Positions 13,929 to 49,012 of a stretch of DNA of 64,000 nt are shown here, piece by piece. The DNA is taken from positions 24,296 through 88,295 of the forward strand of contig JBGPDC010000001.1 of the NCBI GenBank assembly GCA_041482115.1, read 5' to 3'. Under the pieces are notes generated by a model. That model was not told the DNA's origin. It ran no database searches and saw only the letters and a list, made by a program, of their open reading frames with translations. Numbering within the stretch: the first letter of the stretch is position 1; each line of letters opens with the position of its first letter. Both the position numbers and the translations under genes were made by a program. Source of the DNA: Terriglobia bacterium. Lineage in GTDB: Bacteria; Acidobacteriota; Terriglobia; Bryobacterales; JACQDG01.

Positions 13929-14047
13929 AGAGCTACCTACTTGCGACGGAACAGCCGGCTCACCGAATCTGAGTCATCGCGGCTCGTGACATGAAGGCCG
14001 TCGGGCATTGAGTATTTGTCGAGCAGGAAATGTCAAGAGCCTAAATG

Positions 14048-15157
14048 TCACGCGCGGCGGAACTGTATGATCTCTGGTTCCTTTCCTTTGGGTACTGGGA
14101 CAGCAACGCCCGTAATGTCACGAAACGTGTCGGGCGTGAATTTGAGTTCCCGGCAAAGAGCGTCCAAGGTAACATCGGCTTTGGTTCCGAGCGCCTTCAG
14201 CGCTGTTAGAAGCAACTCGGGCTCCTGAAACGGAGGTTCGTGTGGTTCGCCTTTGGTCCAACCTTTCGCGGACATGTACTTGAATGCCTGCCGATAGGTG
14301 ACGGCATCAAGCAACCTCAGATCGTAGGCCCGCCTGATGATTGCAGCTGCACTGGTCTGCCAGCGCCGTTTTAAATCGAAGATATGTTCCCATGAGAAGG
14401 ACGAAAGGCTGAACTCTCGACCAAATGCCCTGCGAGGCATCAGGAAGGCGCTAGCGAACCGATCAGCGGCCATCTCGGTGTCGACGGTACCCGTGGGGAC
14501 ACCACGATGCACTACGAGATGACCGCATTCATGCGCGATGTCGAAGTTCCACCGGGACGTGCTCGGCGTCGCTTGATTCAGAAAAATGATCGTGGTTCGG
14601 CCGTACCTTGAAAAGGCATCTACCTTCGCGGACTGAATTGGCTGATGCACGATAATCACGCCAGCGTGCTCCAGCACCCTACCGATTTGCAGAATTGGCG
14701 CGTCCACTCCGACCCTCCAATGCTGGCGGCATTCCTCCGCCGCTGTTTCTATCTCTTCCGCGCTCGACGCTGGGATGTTCGGCACATTGATCTCGGGAAA
14801 CCTGAAAAGAGACTGCAGCCGTAGGAGCAGCATGCCGAGCAAGGTCGCATGAGCGCGAACCCGCGTCTTGAGCCGTTCTGGAGTGGTCCGCCGATGCCGA
14901 AAACTGCATTCATCTTCTCGGAAAACATCATCGAGCGAGCCATAGAAAAAGGCAGGCTCAAATCCGAGAACGACGCCACATGCTTCGACGAGGTCTCGGG
15001 CCGGGTCTCTCTTCTTACCTGCCTCGCAAAGCGAGATGAGGGCAGGCGAGGCTGCGACCTTCTCGCCAAGCTCCTTTTGCGTCAGGCCCCGGAACTCACG
15101 CGCGAGCTGCAGTCGTTCGCCCCAGAACACTTCGCTTGGAAACAACAAACCGCTCAT
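14048..15157 (-). CDS. XRE-family HTH fused to ImmA/IrrE (COG2856) zinc metallopeptidase
   Basis: N-terminal HTH (LAREFRGLTQKELGEKVAASPALISLCEAGKK). HEXXH motif IAHECGHLVVH followed by ADRFASAFLMP. 369 aa. GC is lower than the flanks. Confidence 0.85.
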   Translation of the reverse strand: MSGLLFPSEVFWGERLQLAREFRGLTQKELGEKVAASPALISLCEAGKKRDPARDLVEACGVVLGFEPAFFYGSLDDVFREDECSFRHRRTTPERLKTRVRAHATLLGMLLLRLQSLFRFPEINVPNIPASSAEEIETAAEECRQHWRVGVDAPILQIGRVLEHAGVIIVHQPIQSAKVDAFSRYGRTTIIFLNQATPSTSRWNFDIAHECGHLVVHRGVPTGTVDTEMAADRFASAFLMPRRAFGREFSLSSFSWEHIFDLKRRWQTSAAAIIRRAYDLRLLDAVTYRQAFKYMSAKGWTKGEPHEPPFQEPELLLTALKALGTKADVTLDALCRELKFTPDTFRDITGVAVPVPKGKEPEIIQFRRA

Positions 15158-15789
15158 CGGGTTTTTTCTGCTTCTCTGCGCTTCTCCTGCTTCTCCTGCT
15201 TGTTCCGTTCCGCAGTCTTCAAAGGTTCGAGTATCGGCGGCGGCAGGTCAATAGGCTTGGCTTGCATCGGGGTGACACGGTCCGGCTCAAGATCGAACGG
15301 AATGGCGTAGGTCTGCGTGATGTTTCCGGACTCATCCATCTCGACGAAGATGACGCTAGACACCAGGCGGGTGGCGGGATCGACTTCGACAGCAAGACGG
15401 AGCGTCGTATCTAATGGAGGGAGGCCCTCCATCTCAAACGACATCTGCCGGTGGTGTAACTCTCCATAGGTTGCGATGAGATACCGTTCAGGCGGGTCGT
15501 CTGATGCACCCTTGTAGAATCGGAAGGGTACCGATTCGATGGCGAAACTGAACCGCAAAACCTCAGCCTCGGGTAGGATTGTGAGCCAAGGGTGGTCCTT
15601 GGCGGCTTTGCGTATCGCGTGACATGTTCGGACGTAAACTCGGCAACCGAGGCTCCACTCGTTGTCTCCATTCGCCGTGTCGTGGAGCTGTACGGCGTCA
15701 CGTCTCACGTCGCGGATGATGCCCGCAACCGCCGAAAGGCGGTCTCGCGTGAGGTCCGGGTACCTAGCCCAAGGCTCGAAGTTATTCAT
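15154..15789 (-). CDS. hypothetical protein, no recognisable family; partner of the HTH-ImmA/IrrE gene
   Basis: 211-aa ORF. Its stop overlaps the downstream ATG (ATGA at 15154-15157). It has a mixed helical/beta core, a Pro-rich linker and a K/E/R tail (KTAERNKQEKQEKRREAEKTR). Confidence 0.6.
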   Translation of the reverse strand: MNNFEPWARYPDLTRDRLSAVAGIIRDVRRDAVQLHDTANGDNEWSLGCRVYVRTCHAIRKAAKDHPWLTILPEAEVLRFSFAIESVPFRFYKGASDDPPERYLIATYGELHHRQMSFEMEGLPPLDTTLRLAVEVDPATRLVSSVIFVEMDESGNITQTYAIPFDLEPDRVTPMQAKPIDLPPPILEPLKTAERNKQEKQEKRREAEKTR

Positions 15790-15830
15790 GCGTCATAGCA
15801 TACACGATTGCGGACATTGGTGCAATAAAA

Positions 15831-15893
15831 TTTACGGCCAGGAAATTATTTACAGTGATGTCAATAGTTTACAGCGTCGTAAAGACTTTACAG
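15831..15893. repeat. four direct TTTACRG repeats at 18-19 bp spacing (iteron/operator-like)
   Basis: TTTACGG at 15831, then TTTACAG at 15849, 15868 and 15887. Each is preceded by an A-rich stretch. The array lies between the stop of the small basic gene (15895) and the start of the 211-aa gene (15789). Confidence 0.8.
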
Positions 15894-15894
15894 C

Positions 15895-16143
15895 CTATTT
15901 CTTGCCCCACCGCGCCGCCGCCGCCTTTTTAGCGATCATCTTCCGCTTGCGGGCCGACAGTGATTCCGCCCGCGCCTTGCCCCCCTTGGACGCCCCCAGC
16001 TTACTCAGCGCCACGGCTGCCTGGTTCCGGGTGTCGGGCGGATCGGGCGGGCGCTCGACCTGCCCGGTCAACTCCTGGACCACCTGCCAGGCTAGCTGGT
16101 TCGTGTCCCTGGGGCGCTTCGGCCTGCTTGCTCGGGAAGGCAT
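15895..16143 (-). CDS. small basic protein (Lys/Arg/Ala-rich C-terminus, putative nucleic-acid binding)
   Basis: ORF 15895..16179 trimmed to M13. MPSRASRPKRPRDTNQLAWQVVQELTG...GASKGGKARAESLSARKRKMIAKKAAAARWGKK resembles widespread small hypothetical proteins of this pattern. Confidence 0.55.
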   Translation of the reverse strand: MPSRASRPKRPRDTNQLAWQVVQELTGQVERPPDPPDTRNQAAVALSKLGASKGGKARAESLSARKRKMIAKKAAAARWGKK

Positions 16144-39716: not shown

Positions 39717-40172
39717 CTATTCGGCCTTTAAGATCTCTATCGCCCGCCGATGGTCGGACCCAGGCGGCAGTAAGTTTTCGACACGCCGGTCAAAGGTGGC
39801 CAACTGGCCGGTTCGCCGAATGGCCAGATCCAGGAGCACGGCGTCGGCGAGCTGGTGGTGCCCCATCACGCGCTGTCGCAGCTCGGGCAACAGGTCCGAC
39901 ATGCCGCTCTCGAGCGGCCAGAACTCATGATTCTCCGCCCCCAGGTTGACATCCAGCATCTGCCAGGCCTCTGCGGTGGTGATGGTCGTTTTGACAACAG
40001 CAGGTTGAGAGGACAGGCGAACGAAAGCCTGTTGGGTAAGCAGACAGGTTGCCCACCTTTGGCCTCGCCTTCGCGCCAACCACTCATGCGCCGCCTCGTG
40101 GTGCAAATGATTGGGCCACGCCAGCGCCAGGAGAACGTTAGTGTCCAGGAGCGCCACCGCCATGTCGCTCAC
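39717..40172 (-). CDS. vapC: PIN-domain toxin VapC
   Basis: ALLDTNVLLAL ... ATFDRR. 4-nt overlap with the upstream antitoxin gene. Confidence 0.85.
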   Translation of the reverse strand: MSDMAVALLDTNVLLALAWPNHLHHEAAHEWLARRRGQRWATCLLTQQAFVRLSSQPAVVKTTITTAEAWQMLDVNLGAENHEFWPLESGMSDLLPELRQRVMGHHQLADAVLLDLAIRRTGQLATFDRRVENLLPPGSDHRRAIEILKAE

Positions 40173-40486: not shown

Positions 40487-40930
40487 TCAAGGCTCTAAAA
40501 CCGCCAGCCCGGGCGGCGCCACCGCGAGAAAATGCCGGACATTGAACGTGAGCAGGGTCGTAGCTCCGGCCTGGTACGAGCAGAGAGCGATGATGCCGTC
40601 ATAAATGCGGCCGCCTCCCAGGCCGCGGGCGGCAAGATCCCGCACCGCCAAGCGGCAGGTCTCCGCCGTCATCCCGGCCAATTCGCCGGCGTCCAGATAC
40701 TTCGAGAGAATCGCTGCCGCCGTTTCCGGAGAGGTGGCCAGCGGCGGCGGCAGCCGCGTGAGAACCGAGAAGCACTCGAGAAACGCGTGTCCCGCAATCA
40801 CCAGCCGCTCCCCGCGAGCCAGGCGCTTCTCGTACCCGCGCACCGCCGCCTTGTGACGCTCGTGCCACTCGGCCAGGAGCGCGATCAGACAACTGGTGTC
40901 TAACGCAAACTTAACGCCGTGGGAACGCAC
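40487..40930 (-). CDS. vapC: PIN-domain toxin VapC (second copy)
   Basis: FALDTSCLIALL ... LLTFNVRHF. GTG start, overlapping the AbrB-type antitoxin gene by 20 nt. Confidence 0.8.
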   Translation of the reverse strand: MRSHGVKFALDTSCLIALLAEWHERHKAAVRGYEKRLARGERLVIAGHAFLECFSVLTRLPPPLATSPETAAAILSKYLDAGELAGMTAETCRLAVRDLAARGLGGGRIYDGIIALCSYQAGATTLLTFNVRHFLAVAPPGLAVLEP

Positions 40931-42323: not shown

Positions 42324-42385
42324 CTCCGGTGCGCGACGTTCAGTGTAGCGTGCCGGAGGTGATAGGAAGCAGGGCTGCGACCGAC

Positions 42386-43042
42386 TTATTTCTTGACCTT
42401 GACCGGCGCTTCCAGGCGGAAGCTCAGGCGGGTCTCGACCGGTATGACGATATTCTTCTTGCCGGTAGCATAGGCCCCGCCCGTACCGGCCGCCGCGCCC
42501 ACGCCCGCTCCTATCAAAGCGCCGGTGCCACCGCCGGCCAGCGCTCCGATCAAGGCGCCGCCGCCCGAGCCGCCGCCGATGAGGGCCAGGTTGCGCTTCT
42601 TATGCGAACTCGCCGCGCGGCTCACCGTGGTCGTGTTGATCTGGTAGGAGTCGCCTTCCCACACCAGCGTATCGAGCGTAAGGGCCAGGCGCGCCGGGGT
42701 CTTCAGCCGCCCCGAAGGCACCGCTTGTGTGACGTGCCCGTGGACTATCGCGCCCTTGGGCACTACTACCTTCTCGCCGGCCACGATCGGCGTGTCCAGC
42801 GTGGCCTCGAAGTCGTCTCCCGCACGGCTTGCGGCGGAGCCTATCGACTGGTTGAGGCGCACTTGCAGCTCCGTCCCCGCCGGGAGGTGCACTTCCGACC
42901 GGATCGCCGAGCGCAGCTTGGCCGCGAGCGACTTCTCCTGCTCGGGGCCTGCGGCGGCCGCGCTGTCCGGCTTCGGCTGGCTGCTGCAGCCGGCGAGCCA
43001 AGCGAGGCTCGCAATTACTAGTGCGGCGTTTTTCATTCGCAT
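42386..43042 (-). CDS. lipoprotein with C-terminal glycine-zipper region
   Basis: ORF trimmed to MRMKNAALVIASLAWLAGCSS (lipobox LAGC). GGGSGGGALIGALAGGGTGALIGAGVGAAAGTGG. Confidence 0.7.
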   Translation of the reverse strand: MRMKNAALVIASLAWLAGCSSQPKPDSAAAAGPEQEKSLAAKLRSAIRSEVHLPAGTELQVRLNQSIGSAASRAGDDFEATLDTPIVAGEKVVVPKGAIVHGHVTQAVPSGRLKTPARLALTLDTLVWEGDSYQINTTTVSRAASSHKKRNLALIGGGSGGGALIGALAGGGTGALIGAGVGAAAGTGGAYATGKKNIVIPVETRLSFRLEAPVKVKK

Positions 43043-43486
43043 GATCGGTCCCTCTGCCGCTTCAGGTGGCAACCGCGGGTCCAGTCGTACAAATCTTTAT
43101 TTTGCTATAAGTTACGTGATGCCATAGCCCTGCCGAACAGGTAAGAATTACCTGCTGCCGGGAATTCCTTCTGGGCCGGTCACGGCTTTTTGAGAATTTC
43201 TTTAGCCATGTTTTCAACACCTTGACTCGCGCGGGGCCCGCAAACAGAACTTTCCACCCTTACTCTGGAATTAGAGGGGGATCCTTCCCCAAGGAAACCC
43301 CGGCCGCAACAATGGGCGATCCGATTATCATTCCGGATCTCTGCTTCTAGCAGAGCCGGAACAATTCGGCAAACCTGCGTTGCAATTCAAACCTGTAGAG
43401 GTTGCCCGGCATCTCGCGCCGGCGCCGTCGCCAGGCCGGACATGGCCGAGCTTCGCGCGCGGGCCGGCGCAAACGCCGGAAAAAAA

Positions 43487-43527
43487 GGGGGATTCACTTG
43501 CCTTTTGGCAGTTAAATCCCCCATAAT
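43487..43527 (+). promoter_or_regulatory. hairpin plus promoter-like elements just upstream of the CHAT gene
   Basis: GGGGGATT (43487-43494) pairs with AATCCCCC (43515-43522), with inner TGCC/GGCA pairing. TTGCCT at 43498-43503, an 18-nt spacer, then CATAAT at 43522-43527. Confidence 0.4.
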
Positions 43528-43533
43528 CTCGCC

Positions 43534-46002
43534 GTGGGGAGAAAAGGCGAGTGGCTCTTTGGAAAAGGGAGCTGCTGGATAGTATTTTGGCTGGCGCTCA
43601 ATTCTCAATATTTTTCTGCGCCACCTCTGGTTCTCTCCGCCGCCGACCTGCCCGCCTGGGAGACGCATTCTACCGAAGCCCGTAGGGCCTTCGATCAAAG
43701 CCTCTATCTCGAGGCTCTGGGTGGCTACCGCGCGGCGCTGGCGGACGCGGAGGCGGCCGGCGAGCCCCCCGGCGTAACGGGCCGGATCCGCAACAGTGTG
43801 GGCGCCTGCTGGTTGGGGCTTGGCAACTATCAGGCCGCGCTCTCGGAATTTCTCCGCGCCTTGCCGTTGGTGGAACAAGCCGGCGACGCCGAGCGACAGG
43901 CGGCGGTCGAGACCAACATCGCTTCGGTGTATTTTTTTCAGGGCGACCGGGAGAATGCGCATCGTCTCTACCGCCGCGCGCTCGATAATTTGCAAAAACG
44001 GACTCCCTTACCGGATTCAATGGCGCGGATTAAGCCTCTAATTCTGGCGAATTTAGGGGCTCTCGAACGGCTGGACGGCCGCTACCGCCAGGCGCTCGAT
44101 TATGAGCAGGCGGCCCTGGCGGAGGCTCCGGCCGGCGCCGACCCGGCCCGCTGGGCGGGAGTGTACGACCTGCTCGGTCTCACCCGCCTCGATCGGCGGG
44201 AATATCCCCAGGCTCGGGAGGCCTTTGAGCAGGCCCTGCGGCTGCGCCAGCCTCTCGGCGACACGGCGCGTTCCTGGATGTTTCTGGGGCGCCTGGACCT
44301 CGCCAGCGGCCAGGCCGCCGCCGCGCTCAGGCCTTTCGACCGCGCCGCCACCGAGGCCCGCCGGATCGACGATCGCCGGACGCTGTGGCAGATCCTCTAC
44401 TGGCGCGGTACGGCCTGGCGCCGCCAGGGACGGCAGCAGGAAGCCGCCGCGGATTTGGGAGAAGCCGCCGGCGTGCTCGAATCCTTGCGGGCGAGCGTGA
44501 TTCCGACCGACGGCCTGCTGGTGCAGTTCGAGTCCCAGTATCACGACGTGTTCGAGGACTGGGCAGACTTATTGTGCGAAACGGCGGCGGAGGCTGGAGA
44601 CGCGGTCGCGGCCGCGGCGTTTCAGGCCGTCGAATCCGGACGCGCTTACAGCTTGCGGGCCCTGCTGGCGCGCCGTCCGGACCCCCCGGACGCCTCCGCC
44701 CCCACGGTGTGGAGGCAATACCAGGACCGCTTGCGACGGCTGGAGCAAGTGCGCGCCCGGGCGCGCGCCGCCGGTGATCCCGCGCCGTGGCTGGCTCGGG
44801 TGGGCGAGGAAGAAGCGGCGTTACGGGATCTGGAAGCTCGCCTGCGTGTCGAGGAGCCGGTGCTCTCGAACGCCCTCTTCGCTCCGGCTCTGACCTTGCC
44901 CGAGACCCAGGCTCTGCTCGGCCAGCAGGATCTGCTGCTGAGCTTCTACGTCCGCCCGCGCGCCGCCTGGCTATGGGCCGTGACCCGCCGCCAGGCCCGC
45001 TTTTACCGCCTCGCGCCGCCCGCGACCTGGACGCCGGAAGTGCGCCGCTTCCTGAGCGCGCTGCGCGAGGGCGGCGATACGAAGGGGCCCGGACGCCACC
45101 TCTACCGCGCGCTGCTCGGTCCGGTCGACCCGGAACTGCTGGCGCGGCGGCGCTGGATGGTAGCCGCCGACGGCGAGACGGCGCTGCTGCCGTTTGCGGC
45201 GCTGCCGGCCGCCTCCGGGCGCTACTTGATCGAGGAGCGGGCCGTGAGCTACACGCCGGCGGTGTCGGTGCTGCCGGGTTTGCGCGAGCGGGAGGCCTAC
45301 CCCTACGAGCGCGATTTTCTCGCTTTCGCCGATCCCATCGTGAACAACGCCGATCCGCGTCTGGCGGCGCGGCGCGCGGCCGCGCCGGGCGAGGCGCTGC
45401 TGCCGCGCCTGGCGTCGAGCGCCGCGGAGGCGCAGGCGTGCGCGCGGCTGTTCGGCGCGGCCCACTCCACCGTGCTGACCGGGGCGGCAGTCTCCGCGAG
45501 CGGGCTGCGGCGGCAGGCCGCCGCCGGTTACCGCTATTGGCACCTCACCTCCCATGTGATCGTCGATGATGAGCGGCCCAACTCGTCTTTCATCGCCCTG
45601 AGCCTGCCGGAGAAGCTCACGGTGCTCGAGGTGCTGAGCCTGCCGGCCCGCGCCGAAATGGTTACTTTGAATGGCTGCGAATCGGGAGGGGGCAAGCTGC
45701 TCCCCGGTACCGGGGTGCTCGGGCTGACACGCGCTTTTCTGGCCGCCGGGGCCGTCTCGGTGCTGGCCACCCGATGGCAGATCCCCGACGAGAGCGGGGC
45801 GCTCGTCCAGGCCCTTTACCGGAACCTGCTGGCCGCGGGATCCTGCCGCGCGGGCCGCTCCGAGGCGTTACGGCAGGCCCAGCTTGAGATGCTGCGCGCC
45901 GGAGGCTGGCGCTCCGAACCACGCTACTGGGCGGCCTACTTCCTTTCCGGCTGGCCGGGCCCGGACTCTTGCACCGGCTCGGATCACCGAGGTGCACTCT
46001 GA
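43534..46002 (+). CDS. TPR-repeat CHAT-domain (caspase-like) protease
   Basis: Multiple TPR-like repeats (YLEALGGYRAAL, NLGALERLDGRYRQAL). C-terminal CHAT domain with a His/Cys dyad context (WHLTSHVIVDD, VTLNGCESGGG). The GTG start is uncertain. Confidence 0.85.
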   Translation: MGRKGEWLFGKGSCWIVFWLALNSQYFSAPPLVLSAADLPAWETHSTEARRAFDQSLYLEALGGYRAALADAEAAGEPPGVTGRIRNSVGACWLGLGNYQAALSEFLRALPLVEQAGDAERQAAVETNIASVYFFQGDRENAHRLYRRALDNLQKRTPLPDSMARIKPLILANLGALERLDGRYRQALDYEQAALAEAPAGADPARWAGVYDLLGLTRLDRREYPQAREAFEQALRLRQPLGDTARSWMFLGRLDLASGQAAAALRPFDRAATEARRIDDRRTLWQILYWRGTAWRRQGRQQEAAADLGEAAGVLESLRASVIPTDGLLVQFESQYHDVFEDWADLLCETAAEAGDAVAAAAFQAVESGRAYSLRALLARRPDPPDASAPTVWRQYQDRLRRLEQVRARARAAGDPAPWLARVGEEEAALRDLEARLRVEEPVLSNALFAPALTLPETQALLGQQDLLLSFYVRPRAAWLWAVTRRQARFYRLAPPATWTPEVRRFLSALREGGDTKGPGRHLYRALLGPVDPELLARRRWMVAADGETALLPFAALPAASGRYLIEERAVSYTPAVSVLPGLREREAYPYERDFLAFADPIVNNADPRLAARRAAAPGEALLPRLASSAAEAQACARLFGAAHSTVLTGAAVSASGLRRQAAAGYRYWHLTSHVIVDDERPNSSFIALSLPEKLTVLEVLSLPARAEMVTLNGCESGGGKLLPGTGVLGLTRAFLAAGAVSVLATRWQIPDESGALVQALYRNLLAAGSCRAGRSEALRQAQLEMLRAGGWRSEPRYWAAYFLSGWPGPDSCTGSDHRGAL

Positions 46003-46640
46003 ACTCTGCAACAGGGTCGGCCACCCGGGACGAAGCCGCCGGCTGGGCGCGCATCGTGGCCCAGATTGAGGCGCGGGAAACCACCGGCCAGACGGCGCTC
46101 TACGAGTCCTTTGGACGCGGCTTGCGATTCTACTTCTCCCACTACCTCCAGCGCCAGGACGTGGAGGACCGGGTTCACGACACGCTCGTCGCGGTCGTCT
46201 TTGCCCTGCGCCACAATCACTTGCAGGAGCCGGCGTGCCTGCCGGGATACGTGTATACGATCGCCCGGCGTCAGGTGGCGGCTTACATCGCGGAGGCCGT
46301 TCGCAACCGAACGGAGTCCGCGGATCTCACGGCGGCGGCCGGGCTGCGGCAAGGCGGGCCCAACCCGGAGGAGCAGGTCATCGACAAGCAGCAGCGCGAG
46401 ATGGCACGGCAGTTGTTAGCCAGCCTTCCCGAGATCGACCGGCAGATCCTCCTGCGGTTCTACTACCAGGGGCAGTTGCCCGAGCAGATCTGCACCGAGT
46501 TGAGGCTGACCGATACGCAGTTCCGCCTGCGGAAGAGCCGGGCCAAGAAGCGCTTTGAGGAGCTGGTCCGGAAGACCTTGAGACGGGAGCGACTATTCTC
46601 CGCATTTCTGGTGAGACAAGAGGCCTCCCCAGAGCACTGA
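45969..46640 (+). CDS. ECF-type RNA polymerase sigma-70 family factor
   Basis: Sigma-2-like DRVHDTLVAVVFAL...YVYTIARRQVAAYI. Sigma-4 LPEIDRQILLRFYYQGQLPEQICTELRLTDTQFRLRKSRAKKRF. Start uncertain (TTG 45969 or CTG 45999). Confidence 0.85.
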   Translation: MHRLGSPRCTLNSATGSATRDEAAGWARIVAQIEARETTGQTALYESFGRGLRFYFSHYLQRQDVEDRVHDTLVAVVFALRHNHLQEPACLPGYVYTIARRQVAAYIAEAVRNRTESADLTAAAGLRQGGPNPEEQVIDKQQREMARQLLASLPEIDRQILLRFYYQGQLPEQICTELRLTDTQFRLRKSRAKKRFEELVRKTLRRERLFSAFLVRQEASPEH

Positions 46641-46649
46641 ATATTTGTC

Positions 46650-47276
46650 ATGACGCACGCCGATATCGAAACCCAGGAAATCATCGACCGCTACTTGCTT
46701 GGCAAGCTGCCCAGCGAGTTGCAGGAGCAGTTCGAGCAGCACTTCCTGGCCTGCGCGGATTGCCTCGAAAAGCTCGAATCGAGCCGGCCGGCGCTGGGCC
46801 TGATCGCGGCCAGCCGGGTAAGCCCCCGGCCCCGGTGGTTCACGGCCCCCGCCTGGGGTATGGCAGCGATGATCGCCCTGGCCGTGTGGGTGACGGCGGG
46901 ACGATCGCCCGCCCCGCCTAGGCCGGCCCCGGCCGCAGTCGAGGCCGCCCCGGAACCGTTGATCGAGCTCAGCACCTTCCGCGGCGGCGGGCCGGCGAGA
47001 GGACTGCGCCGGGACCAAACCGCCGGCCCCTTCAGGCTGCTGCTGGACCTCCAGAGTCTAGATACCTATGACTGCTACTCGGTCGAGATAGCGAGCGAGC
47101 AGGGCGCCGCCGTTTGGTCCCGTGGCGGCCTCCAGCCGGCGAGCGACCGAGCGCTCGAGGTACAGGTGGAGGGCTTACCTCTGGAGGCCGGGCAGTATTG
47201 GGTGCGGCTCGCGGGCTTCGGCAGCGCCGCCGGGCCGGCACTGGTACGCGAGTACTCGCTGACCGTCCAGCCTTGA
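46650..47276 (+). CDS. zf-HC2 anti-sigma factor, single TM
   Basis: QHFLACADCLEKL (Hx3Cx2C). TM segment APAWGMAAMIALAVWV. About 120-aa extracytoplasmic C-terminus. Confidence 0.8.
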   Translation: MTHADIETQEIIDRYLLGKLPSELQEQFEQHFLACADCLEKLESSRPALGLIAASRVSPRPRWFTAPAWGMAAMIALAVWVTAGRSPAPPRPAPAAVEAAPEPLIELSTFRGGGPARGLRRDQTAGPFRLLLDLQSLDTYDCYSVEIASEQGAAVWSRGGLQPASDRALEVQVEGLPLEAGQYWVRLAGFGSAAGPALVREYSLTVQP

Positions 47277-47319
47277 AGCGGCAAATGGCGTGGTAAGATC
47301 CCTAGATCGAGCCGCGGCC

Positions 47320-47685
47320 ATGATCACCGAAACTAAAACCCGGCGTATAGAACCGGATCTGACAGTAGTCGAGATTTCCGGGCGCCTGAACCTGGGCAAT
47401 ACGCTGCTTTCCATCGAGAACTCCATCGAGCGCCTGATCGCGGAGGGGGCCCGCAAGCTGATCGTCGATCTCACCGGCCTGGACTATATCGATAGCGCCG
47501 GCATCGGGGTGCTGGTGAGTTGCAGCGGGCACGTCGAGCAGAGCGGCGGACGGATGCGCATTGCCGGCGCTCACGGCATCGTCGCCCGGGCCTTCGAGCT
47601 GGTTCACATGGACCGCATCGCCCCACTCGATGCGGATGTCGAATCGGCTAGCCGCCAGTTGTCGGTGGGCGGCGCCGCGGTGTGA
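47320..47685 (+). CDS. STAS-domain anti-sigma-factor antagonist (SpoIIAA/RsbV-like)
   Basis: ORF trimmed to ATG 47320. LIVDLTGLDYIDSAGIGVLV contains the conserved phospho-Ser context. Confidence 0.8.
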   Translation: MITETKTRRIEPDLTVVEISGRLNLGNTLLSIENSIERLIAEGARKLIVDLTGLDYIDSAGIGVLVSCSGHVEQSGGRMRIAGAHGIVARAFELVHMDRIAPLDADVESASRQLSVGGAAV

Positions 47686-47701
47686 GCGCTACTCTAACAG
47701 G

Positions 47702-49012
47702 CTAAAGCGGCGGCTCCATCGGAAGGGCGAGGGGCGGCTCGAGCAGGAAATCGAGGCCCTGCATCTCCCCCACCGCTTTCCGCACGGCGCGCTCGGTGGT
47801 CGGCTCGAGGGTGATCACGAAAGGCAAATCCTCTTTATTGGGACACGGTTCCTGGAGCACGGCCTCGAGACCAATGCGGGCCGCGGCCAGGATGGAGGCG
47901 AGCGCGGCGATGATGCCCGGACGGTCCACGACACGGAACCGCAGGTAGTAAGGCCGCACCTGGTGCTCGATGGAGATCGGCGCGTATTCGCGCAGCCGGT
48001 CGTGGGCGAAGGGCGAGACGCGCTCGGGGTTGCCCTTGGCGATCTCGCGCGCCACGCGCATCAGGTCGCTCACCACGGCCACGCCGGTCGGCTGTGGGCC
48101 GGCGCCCCGGCCGTAGTAGAATGTGTCGCCGCCGTGGACGCCTTTCACCCAGATGGCGTTGAACGCGCCCTGCACGTGCGCCAGGATAGTACCGAGCGGG
48201 ACCAGCGCCGGCCGTACCGAAAGCAGCAGTCCGGCCTGCGTCTGCTGGGCCATGCCGATGAGCCGGATGGTGTGGCCGAGGCGGTGGGCATAGGAGAAGT
48301 CCATCGGCGAGATGCGCCGGATGCCTTCGAGGTAAATGTCGGAGGGCAGCACGCGGACGCCGTAAGCGAGCGCCGCCAGGATCGCGAGCTTCGAGCGCGC
48401 GTCGTAGCCGTCGATGTCGGCCGAGGGGTCGGTCTCGGCGTAACCCAGCCGCTGCGCCTCGGCCAGCACGGTCTCGAGGGGCGCCCCGTGCTTCTCCATC
48501 TCGGTGAGGATGAAGTTACAGGTGCCGTTGAGGATGCCGAGCAGGGTCTCCACGCGGTCGCCCGAAATGCCCTCACGCAGCACGGTGTGAATCGGGATGC
48601 CGCCCGCGACGCTCGCCTCCATGGCGAGGCAGATCCCCGCGCGGATGGCGGCGTCCCAGATCTTCGGCCCATCGGCCGCCATCAGCTCCTTGTTGGCGGT
48701 GACGACGGACTTGCCGTGGGCGATCGCGGCGCTCACGATCTCCGCCGCGACGCCCGTGCCGCCGACCAGCTCCGCCACGATGTGGATCTCCGGGTGCTCG
48801 ACGATATCCTGCCAGCGGGTGGTGCGCAACACGTTGGGGAATAGCGCCGCAGCCGCCGGGGGGCGCTCGGCGAGCGAGCGGGAGCAGATGGCGCGCACCT
48901 GAAGATCGAAGCCGAGCTTCTCGCGGATCTGCCGGGCGTTCTCGTGCAGGATCGTGAGGGTGCCGCTGCCGACATTACCGAGGCCTACGATCCCGATATT
49001 GATGGGGGGCAT
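47702..49012 (-). CDS. hom: homoserine dehydrogenase
   Basis: ORF 47702..49330 trimmed to MPPINIGIVGLGNVGSG. VVTANKELMA, GILNGTCNFILT. C-terminal ACT-like region. Confidence 0.93.
   Translation of the reverse strand: MPPINIGIVGLGNVGSGTLTILHENARQIREKLGFDLQVRAICSRSLAERPPAAAALFPNVLRTTRWQDIVEHPEIHIVAELVGGTGVAAEIVSAAIAHGKSVVTANKELMAADGPKIWDAAIRAGICLAMEASVAGGIPIHTVLREGISGDRVETLLGILNGTCNFILTEMEKHGAPLETVLAEAQRLGYAETDPSADIDGYDARSKLAILAALAYGVRVLPSDIYLEGIRRISPMDFSYAHRLGHTIRLIGMAQQTQAGLLLSVRPALVPLGTILAHVQGAFNAIWVKGVHGGDTFYYGRGAGPQPTGVAVVSDLMRVAREIAKGNPERVSPFAHDRLREYAPISIEHQVRPYYLRFRVVDRPGIIAALASILAAARIGLEAVLQEPCPNKEDLPFVITLEPTTERAVRKAVGEMQGLDFLLEPPLALPMEPPL

Follow-up and report, generated by a model that had tools for sequence, protein, structure and literature searches.

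Background

The route by which the anti-sigma factor of a sigma factor with extracytoplasmic function (ECF) is inactivated is known for few families only. Among the described systems the closest to the locus reported here is DdvS/DdvA of Myxococcus xanthus (PDB 8ROT/8RW5; PMC11506125, PMC6061681). DdvA carries a zinc-binding anti-sigma (ZAS) domain, a transmembrane helix and a periplasmic TPR-CHAT part in one protein; according to a published proposal CHAT cuts the linker in trans and RseP acts next, and a truncated form was shown to depend on RseP (PMC11506125). The search for such fused proteins, in which the authors looked for fused proteins alone, found them in Myxococcota and in one Comamonas only (PMC11506125). 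By definition the DdvA type has an incomplete active site without the three-helix motif, which is completed by dimerisation. Here we describe a locus in a 64,000-nt stretch of a Terriglobia bacterium genome (GenBank assembly GCA_041482115.1, contig JBGPDC010000001.1, positions 24,296 to 88,295 of the forward strand; this whole stretch is called the window and is numbered from its first letter) in which a TPR-CHAT protein, an ECF sigma factor and a ZAS-type anti-sigma factor are encoded by three adjacent genes.

Two further described systems link CHAT proteins to sigma factors of this kind. For the TPR-CHAT protease Csx29, cleavage of Csx30, by which the ECF-like CASP-sigma is inhibited, has been demonstrated (PMC10028731). 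In Actinobacteria, proteins with CHAT, subtilase or carboxypeptidase domains occur in the genomic context of ECF54 sigma factors, without an anti-sigma factor, and proteolytic control has been proposed (PMC8999054). Full-text literature searches returned no description of an acidobacterial split CHAT/sigma/anti-sigma module. CHAT is not named in the main text of the paper that re-classified ECF sigma factors (PMC7826278), and a listing of this subgroup in the ECF Hub is possible.

Results

Conservation of the three-gene unit

Four consecutive open reading frames (ORFs) on the + strand make up the locus, encoding the TPR-CHAT protein, the ECF sigma factor, the zf-HC2 anti-sigma factor and a STAS protein (Table 1). 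An earlier note on this DNA, made from the sequence alone, had described an 822-aa CHAT protein ending at 46002, an overlapping or abutting sigma gene and gaps of 9 nt and 43 nt further on, and the ORF list agrees: the longest sigma ORF overlaps the CHAT stop by 34 nt, the anti-sigma gene starts 9 nt past the sigma stop and the ATG of the STAS gene lies 43 nt past the anti-sigma stop. A terminator scan of the region found no terminator-like site inside the trio.

An alignment of sigma homologs was used to scan GTDB with one genome per species, and at least 573 relatives were found. The locus counts given below refer to the 80 best of these, all from metagenome-assembled genomes (MAGs) of Bryobacterales/Acidobacteriota and all from different species, with 43-50% identity to the window sigma; their six-frame ORFs were searched with the window proteins. 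In 78 of the 80 loci the gene directly upstream of the sigma gene encodes a TPR-CHAT homolog; it has the same orientation and abuts or overlaps the sigma gene. The two exceptions are L078, in which the contig end cuts the CHAT gene, and L050, which is genuinely without one. Directly 3' of the sigma gene an anti-sigma homolog was present in 72 of the 80 loci by phmmer and in 79 by blastp clustering. Word-index homolog searches undercounted both families (31 sigma and 8 anti-sigma matches); the genome scan and an exhaustive HMMER search, with 1654 anti-sigma family cluster representatives (50% clustering, E<=1e-3), show much larger families.

Most of the related loci are syntenic, with ffh (SRP54) on one side of the module and an ACT-DUF5612 gene plus tilS-ftsH on the other (for example L001 8363-12722 and L004 2501-3913). 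The trio also recurs in quite different flanks (the window, L081 with its 51% identical sigma, and the contigs of homologs P0033 and P0159), and therefore behaves as a three-gene unit. The adjacency of CHAT and sigma genes is far beyond chance, and what the earlier note had seen in a single genome is conserved well outside it. The linkage is a specific property of this sigma subgroup and of a CHAT subfamily of ~800-850 aa. No CHAT or anti-sigma gene was found beside the distant sigma relatives P0027, P0024 and P0021 (~37-41% identity) or the REC-fused P0030, and no ECF sigma/anti-sigma pair directly 3' of the next-closest TPR-CHAT proteins P0035, P0049 and P0040 (1000-1200 aa). The TPR-CHAT/sigma/anti-sigma trio is a real and strongly conserved module across ~80 species of soil Acidobacteria.

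Some individual loci showed features of their own. A gene for the membrane protease FtsH is a frequent neighbour of the module in related loci; this proximity is probably coincidental, because tilS-ftsH is a common housekeeping pair. In L006 (6403-8859) a second sigma copy is present 5 kb upstream of a complete module, preceded by the promoter-like motif of the syntenic loci (see below) and followed by an IS4-family transposase gene, without CHAT or anti-sigma gene; this arrangement resembles a partial duplication associated with an insertion sequence. L058 (CALQCC020000027.1) carries a typical Bryobacterales-type module on its contig, yet the MAG is labelled 'Bordetella parapertussis', and the bin is probably mislabelled or contaminated.

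The TPR-CHAT protein

Pfam CHAT matches residues 519-806 of the 822-aa protein (E=1.2e-56) and several Pfam TPR families match residues 85-275. In the AlphaFold (AF2) model (predicted local distance difference test, pLDDT, 85.8; predicted template modelling score, pTM, 0.86) residues 1-35 are disordered and are followed by a TPR superhelix (~40-440) and an alpha/beta CHAT domain (~460-810). The His-Cys dyad, on which the earlier note had made its proposal depend, is in place: neither H674 nor C715 varies among 63 full-length homologs that are only ~28% identical to the window protein, and 98% of them keep H670. Both dyad residues are also invariant in alignments that include more distant TPR-CHAT proteins. 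This invariance indicates selection for catalysis.

A Foldseek search of the PDB gave Csx29 (Craspase), DdvA (8RW5/8ROT) and separases as top matches, with E values of ~1e-14 to 1e-12. The full-length CHAT profile against PDB sequences was swamped by TPR matches, and the search was repeated with the CHAT domain alone. DdvA (8rot_B) was then the best match (E=1.2e-4), with the His and Cys regions covered; Csx29 (0.15) and separase (0.18) followed. By domain, dyad and fold the protein is assigned to the CHAT / clan CD caspase-like proteases, and peptidase activity is predicted.

At the N-terminus, most of the 63 homologs have a basic stretch and then a hydrophobic segment typical of signal peptides, and one has a lipobox-like sequence (lipoprotein). 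The N-terminus of the window protease (residues 1-36, MGRKGEWLFGKGSCWIVFWLAL...LSAAD) is signal-peptide-like, weaker than most, and resembles that of the L081 protein. These features suggest that the TPR-CHAT protein may be exported to the periplasm.

The sigma and anti-sigma factors

The sigma protein exceeds the cut-offs of NCBIfam TIGR02937 (sigma70-ECF; 46.0 bits vs 42.9) and Pfam Sigma70_r4_2 (27.3 vs 25.7) and stays under that of Pfam Sigma70_r2 (17.9, cut-off 24). On these matches it is classified as an ECF (group IV) member of the sigma-70 family, of 194-223 aa. No named NCBIfam ECF subfamily reaches its cut-off and the sigma subgroup is therefore unnamed in NCBIfam. The size depends on the start codon. 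A W-x2-[IL]V motif upstream of GTG 46056 is kept in homologs, which favours the earlier start at TTG 45969; a 95% identical homolog is annotated at 194 aa.

Pfam zf-HC2 matches the anti-sigma protein (24.4 bits vs cut-off 22.2). It has the zinc motif H31-x3-C35-x2-C38, of which all three residues are invariant in 73 homologs. The family consensus is His-x24-His-x3-Cys-x2-Cys, with the upstream His in 96% of the homologs; the window protein has this His at position 3, against position 6 in the family. The register of the zinc ligands equals that of ChrR (H6/H31/C35/C38), to which the match is weak (E = 0.14). The zinc motif places the protein among the ZAS-type (zf-HC2) class I anti-sigma factors. 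Its adjacency to the sigma gene across the 9-nt gap, together with the conservation of the pair, suggests that it binds and inhibits the co-encoded sigma factor.

The AF2 model of the anti-sigma factor contains one transmembrane helix (67-85), in agreement with the single-pass protein described in the earlier note, then a disordered Pro/Ala linker (86-103, pLDDT <50) and a beta-sandwich (104-207, pLDDT 84-90). A fold search with this C-terminal domain of ~100 residues gave only generic Ig/FN3-like matches, all with E >1e-3. None of the 150 best anti-sigma relatives listed (~110-340 aa) was fused to CHAT.

Within the periplasmic part, Arg111 (99%) and Gly112 (96%) stand out in the 73 homologs, following a variable linker. 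They are located in a loop (110-115, pLDDT <50) just past the first periplasmic strand of the model. Cleavage after Arg is common among the proteases of clan CD, separase and metacaspases being examples. Cleavage specificity of separase is taken up, by citation, in PMC11506125. The near-invariant Arg in a loop, combined with the cuts after Arg made by many such proteases, makes Arg111-Gly112 a candidate cleavage site.

Promoter and leader elements

An element of ~65 nt at the start of the CHAT gene (Table 1) is near-identical in the window and in L081 (5578-5644), whose sigma is just 51% identical. The shared sequence is AAAGGGGGATT.ACTTGC-N11-AAATCCCCCATAATCTCGCCGTGG.GAGAAAAGGCGAG. In the window the element contains a sigma70-like promoter (TTGCCT at 43498, an 18-nt spacer and CATAAT ending at 43527), found in a promoter scan that gave 3 sites in the region vs 0.5 expected. 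The second hairpin, CTCGCC-N12-GGCGAG, contains the GTG start at 43534, and the two-hairpin fold of the element has a z of -2.9. From the end of the -10 box to this GTG there are 6 nt, which suggests a leaderless mRNA. The element may be the 5' end of such an mRNA and/or an operator.

The syntenic loci have another element, TTGGTA-N17/18-(TG)nTAGAGTAct, at ~100-150 nt upstream of the CHAT start (for example L042 4323 and L015 4277), with a TCTGCCACC box ~35-40 nt downstream of it. In ~1 Mb of loci this TTGGTA/TAGAGT element is nearly confined to the position before CHAT; it was not found in the window. A single combined TCTGCC/TAGAGT motif was considered and rejected, the two being separate elements, a promoter-like site and the downstream TCTGCCACC box. 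GGAAC-N15-CGTT (43359-43382) was rejected as an ECF autoregulatory promoter, as it is absent before all 62 other CHAT genes and not present in L081.

Surroundings of the module

Neighbouring genes between 37.7 and 54.6 kb encode a thioesterase, two PIN-domain proteins, an amidohydrolase, a homoserine dehydrogenase, a GFO/IDH/MocA oxidoreductase, a methyltransferase, a glycosyltransferase family 4 (GT4) transferase and a heparinase-like protein. The earlier note had reported no RsbW/SpoIIAB-type kinase nearby, and indeed no RsbW-type or HATPase_c-type kinase and no PP2C domain was detected among the ORFs scanned in this range. PADLOC gave no defence-system match for the module or a neighbour. 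Genes for cas proteins, Cas7-11/gRAMP, Csx30 and Csx31 were absent from the ORFs scanned around the module and from the conserved flanks of the related loci, and Rfam had 0 matches in 42900-47900.

The two PIN-domain (VapC-like) genes (39717-40172 and 40487-40930, - strand) are each preceded closely by a small ORF of the same orientation, and two toxin-antitoxin pairs are the probable identity. A hairpin that resembles a terminator and has a T-run is present at 43009-43026, where the upstream ORF 42329-43021 (+) ends. On the homologous contig L086 a 218-aa gene is called on the minus strand at this place, so the coding strand of 42.3-43.1 kb is ambiguous; Pfam gave no match for the ORF on either strand. 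At 14001-16000 the G + C content falls to 0.57 (window average ~0.66), which may indicate foreign or non-coding DNA.

Table 1. Location of the genes, residues and upstream element of the locus in the window
Feature	Position	Strand	Description
Promoter/leader element	43487..43551	+	GGGGGATT..N..AAATCCCCC palindrome around a sigma70-like promoter, then a second hairpin
TPR-CHAT caspase-like protease gene (activity predicted)	43534..46002	+	822 aa; Pfam CHAT and TPR families
H670 codon, near His674	45541..45543	+	H670 in 98% of homologs
Predicted catalytic His674 codon	45553..45555	+	Invariant in alignments; aligned with the DdvA H862 region
Predicted catalytic Cys715 codon	45676..45678	+	Invariant in alignments; aligned with the DdvA C907 region
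ECF sigma factor gene	45969..46640	+	223 aa from TTG 45969; alternatively 194 aa from GTG 46056
Single-pass ZAS-type anti-sigma gene	46650..47276	+	208 aa; Pfam zf-HC2
Arg111-Gly112 of the anti-sigma factor, candidate cleavage site (Arg at P1)	46980..46985	+	Invariance and low-confidence loop
STAS gene	47320..47685	+	ATG at 47320; Pfam STAS, TIGR00377

Discussion

A proposed dedicated caspase-like protease for the anti-sigma factor

The earlier note had proposed that the sigma factor is released by a different proteolytic route from the classical one. With the adjacency conserved and the dyad invariant, a dedicated caspase-like protease acting on the anti-sigma factor is the most reasonable reading, and this part of the proposal stands; the novelty does not, as the route has precedents in DdvA (PMC11506125) and Csx29 (PMC10028731). 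More specifically, the exported TPR-CHAT protein would combine the roles of sensor and site-1 protease, with the anti-sigma factor as its substrate in trans, and the module would be a split form of DdvA. We give this an even chance of being correct. It is favoured because of the strict linkage of the trio, the tight gene junctions, the selection on the dyad, the matching extracytoplasmic topology that is predicted and the existence of the fused form in DdvA.

According to this reading, the cytoplasmic ZAS domain of the anti-sigma factor would hold the sigma factor until the TPR region senses a signal. CHAT would then cut the periplasmic part of the anti-sigma factor in trans (site-1), possibly in the Arg111-Gly112 loop, after which an RseP-type intramembrane protease and then cytoplasmic proteases would complete the degradation. 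The sigma factor would thereby be set free and switch its genes on. Gene content, synteny, the conserved dyad, the fold and the signal-like N-termini are observed; the parts of the scheme that we infer are the periplasmic location, the cleavage and where it occurs, the proteases that act later, the signal and the regulon.

A number of points weigh against this scheme. CHAT-dependent cleavage was not observed even for DdvA (PMC11506125). The juxtamembrane linker of the anti-sigma factor is conserved neither in sequence nor in length. As for export, the N-terminal hydrophobic stretch of the window protease itself is modest, and the 54% identical homolog P0033 was called from a downstream ATG, by which the signal-like segment is not included. 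L050 (6728-8170), the only full-length locus of the 80 whose sigma has no upstream CHAT, has a PfkB kinase gene in that place and a 179-aa ORF downstream. Finally, by their sequence both conserved elements before CHAT look like housekeeping sigma70 promoters rather than ECF-type promoters, and autoregulation by the sigma factor is therefore not established.

Comparison with known systems

The concept of a CHAT protease that controls an ECF-type sigma factor is already in the literature, demonstrated for Csx29 and proposed for DdvA; what differs here is that protease and putative substrate are separate proteins. The module shares with DdvS/DdvA an ECF sigma factor, an N-terminal zinc-binding anti-sigma domain and a single transmembrane helix, as well as a kept His-Cys dyad in a TPR-CHAT part that is predicted to be outside the cytoplasm. 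Of the solved CHAT domains that of DdvA gives the best profile match, it is one of the top matches by fold, and the proposed logic, CHAT as site-1 protease in trans and RseP thereafter, would be the same. The similarity is remote (24 bits; 16% identity when the structures are aligned). Unlike in DdvA, a separate and putatively exported TPR-CHAT protein is encoded upstream, in the window and in all 78 loci, and the anti-sigma factor carries a beta-sandwich of ~100 aa in place of TPR-CHAT. Because TPR-CHAT and anti-sigma factor are separate genes, with anti-sigma relatives of 200-336 aa, the module is not a member of the DdvA architecture. In addition, the hosts are Acidobacteriota, and the flanks are metabolic or housekeeping genes, with no CBASS (cyclic oligonucleotide-based antiphage signalling system) or CRISPR island adjoining the module.

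With the type III-E Craspase/CASP system the module has in common a TPR-CHAT protease set against the inhibitor of an ECF-like sigma factor, with transcription as the outcome, and Csx29 is the top Foldseek match. In contrast, the Csx29 system is cytoplasmic and RNA-guided through Cas7-11, and Csx30 is not a ZAS transmembrane anti-sigma factor; no cas genes were present in the scanned ORFs here and the sequence match is marginal (E = 0.15). Classical regulated intramembrane proteolysis (DegS/RseP-RseA-sigmaE and PrsW/RasP-RsiW-sigmaW) likewise acts on a single-pass anti-sigma factor with a cytoplasmic sigma-binding domain, of which the periplasmic part is trimmed first, and the ZAS domain here weakly resembles those of RsiW and ChrR. 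There, the site-1 enzyme is a serine protease or metalloprotease encoded elsewhere, whereas the candidate enzyme here is a clan-CD cysteine protease encoded in the operon. In ECF54 an ECF sigma gene is also genomically linked to a CHAT-domain protein; the conserved ZAS anti-sigma factor and the acidobacterial hosts set the present module apart from ECF54 as defined in PMC8999054.

A wider proposal can be made, in which a secreted TPR-CHAT sensor and site-1 protease that cuts the ZAS anti-sigma factor after the invariant Arg would constitute a widespread pathway of Bryobacterales/Acidobacteriota, and a free-standing, possibly ancestral form of DdvA. We regard this extension as tentative, possible rather than probable.

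Alternative explanations

The TPR-CHAT protein could instead be a periplasmic partner or sensor that binds the beta-sandwich of the anti-sigma factor through its TPRs and gates the access of another site-1 protease, its own proteolysis being aimed elsewhere (a signal protein, itself or envelope proteins). RseB gates access to RseA in a comparable fashion. Strict synteny and tight gene junctions would suit a stable complex, and a large TPR superhelix is a typical protein-binding scaffold. The unconserved linker fits here as well, since a sequence-specific cut within it is not obvious. The invariant dyad, as a sign of selection for catalysis, argues the other way, and discriminates weakly between the readings because it does not reveal which protein is cut. 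The module contains no further conserved protease gene, which also speaks against a gating role, and we consider this explanation unlikely.

The protease may, alternatively, be the output of the system, a sigma-controlled effector as the earlier note had also suggested: the ECF sigma factor would drive the operon and CHAT would be an effector in envelope remodelling, defence or cell death. The CHAT gene is the first of the unit, behind a conserved promoter-like element that is nearly confined to that position, and ECF sigma factors usually autoregulate their own operon. CHAT proteases are effectors in some defence systems (bioRxiv 10.1101/2023.06.23.546230). The upstream elements, however, are of the sigma70-like form TTGnnn-17/18-TAnAnT and not of the ECF type, and the GGAAC-N15-CGTT candidate lacks conservation. 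Defence genes were not detected in the vicinity. The overlap or abutment of the genes would suggest a fixed co-expression of the protease with the sensor pair, and the fused architecture of DdvA puts TPR-CHAT on the sensing side (PMC11506125). An effector role is thus improbable in our judgement.

The last explanation concerns the STAS gene, which the earlier note had taken as part of the cluster. Its product is a genuine member of the anti-sigma-antagonist family (Pfam STAS E=6.5e-18; TIGR00377 over cut-off; DSAG motif). It falls in a 90% cluster found on contigs that also bear close anti-sigma relatives, and L090, whose anti-sigma is 87% identical, retains the gene series sigma, anti-sigma, STAS, homoserine dehydrogenase. 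Already at ~60% anti-sigma identity it is replaced: a Pterin_4a gene is in its place on the P0159 contig (anti-sigma 59% identical), and a Lactamase_B gene in L081. In none of the 80 loci does a STAS gene adjoin the module; the single match (L063) is ~6 kb downstream. Kept only in very close relatives, the STAS gene is an incidental, lineage-specific neighbour outside the conserved module. As no terminator-like site precedes it, it is possibly co-transcribed with the trio in the window. With a STAS domain and neither kinase nor PP2C found among the ORFs scanned at 37.7-54.6 kb, the locus is not an RsbV/SpoIIAA partner-switching module. Control of the sigma or anti-sigma factor by STAS through partner switching, for which the DSAG motif, the position 43 nt downstream without an intervening terminator and the retention in close relatives could be cited, is very improbable indeed, given its absence next to the module in 79 of 80 loci, the substitutes found in moderately related loci, the lack of an RsbW-type kinase or PP2C among the ORFs scanned nearby and an anti-sigma factor that is of the ZAS type and not a kinase. 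In the close relatives STAS is at least 90% identical and the anti-sigma factor 76-87%, which indicates a stronger constraint on STAS than on its neighbour.

Conclusions

The proposal of a cascade initiated by CHAT rests on DdvA, in which cleavage could not be demonstrated, protease and substrate being a single polypeptide with no known trigger. The acidobacterial module has a protease and a presumed substrate that are two small, separate, soluble-domain proteins, and the idea is therefore directly testable in vitro. The module is found in a large share of a dominant and little-studied group of soil bacteria, and may be a major envelope- or phage-sensing route in Acidobacteria. It would be the third independent case tying TPR-CHAT proteases to the control of ECF sigma factors and, if the wider proposal is true, clan-CD caspase-like proteases would form a general class of enzymes that initiate regulated intramembrane proteolysis in bacteria.

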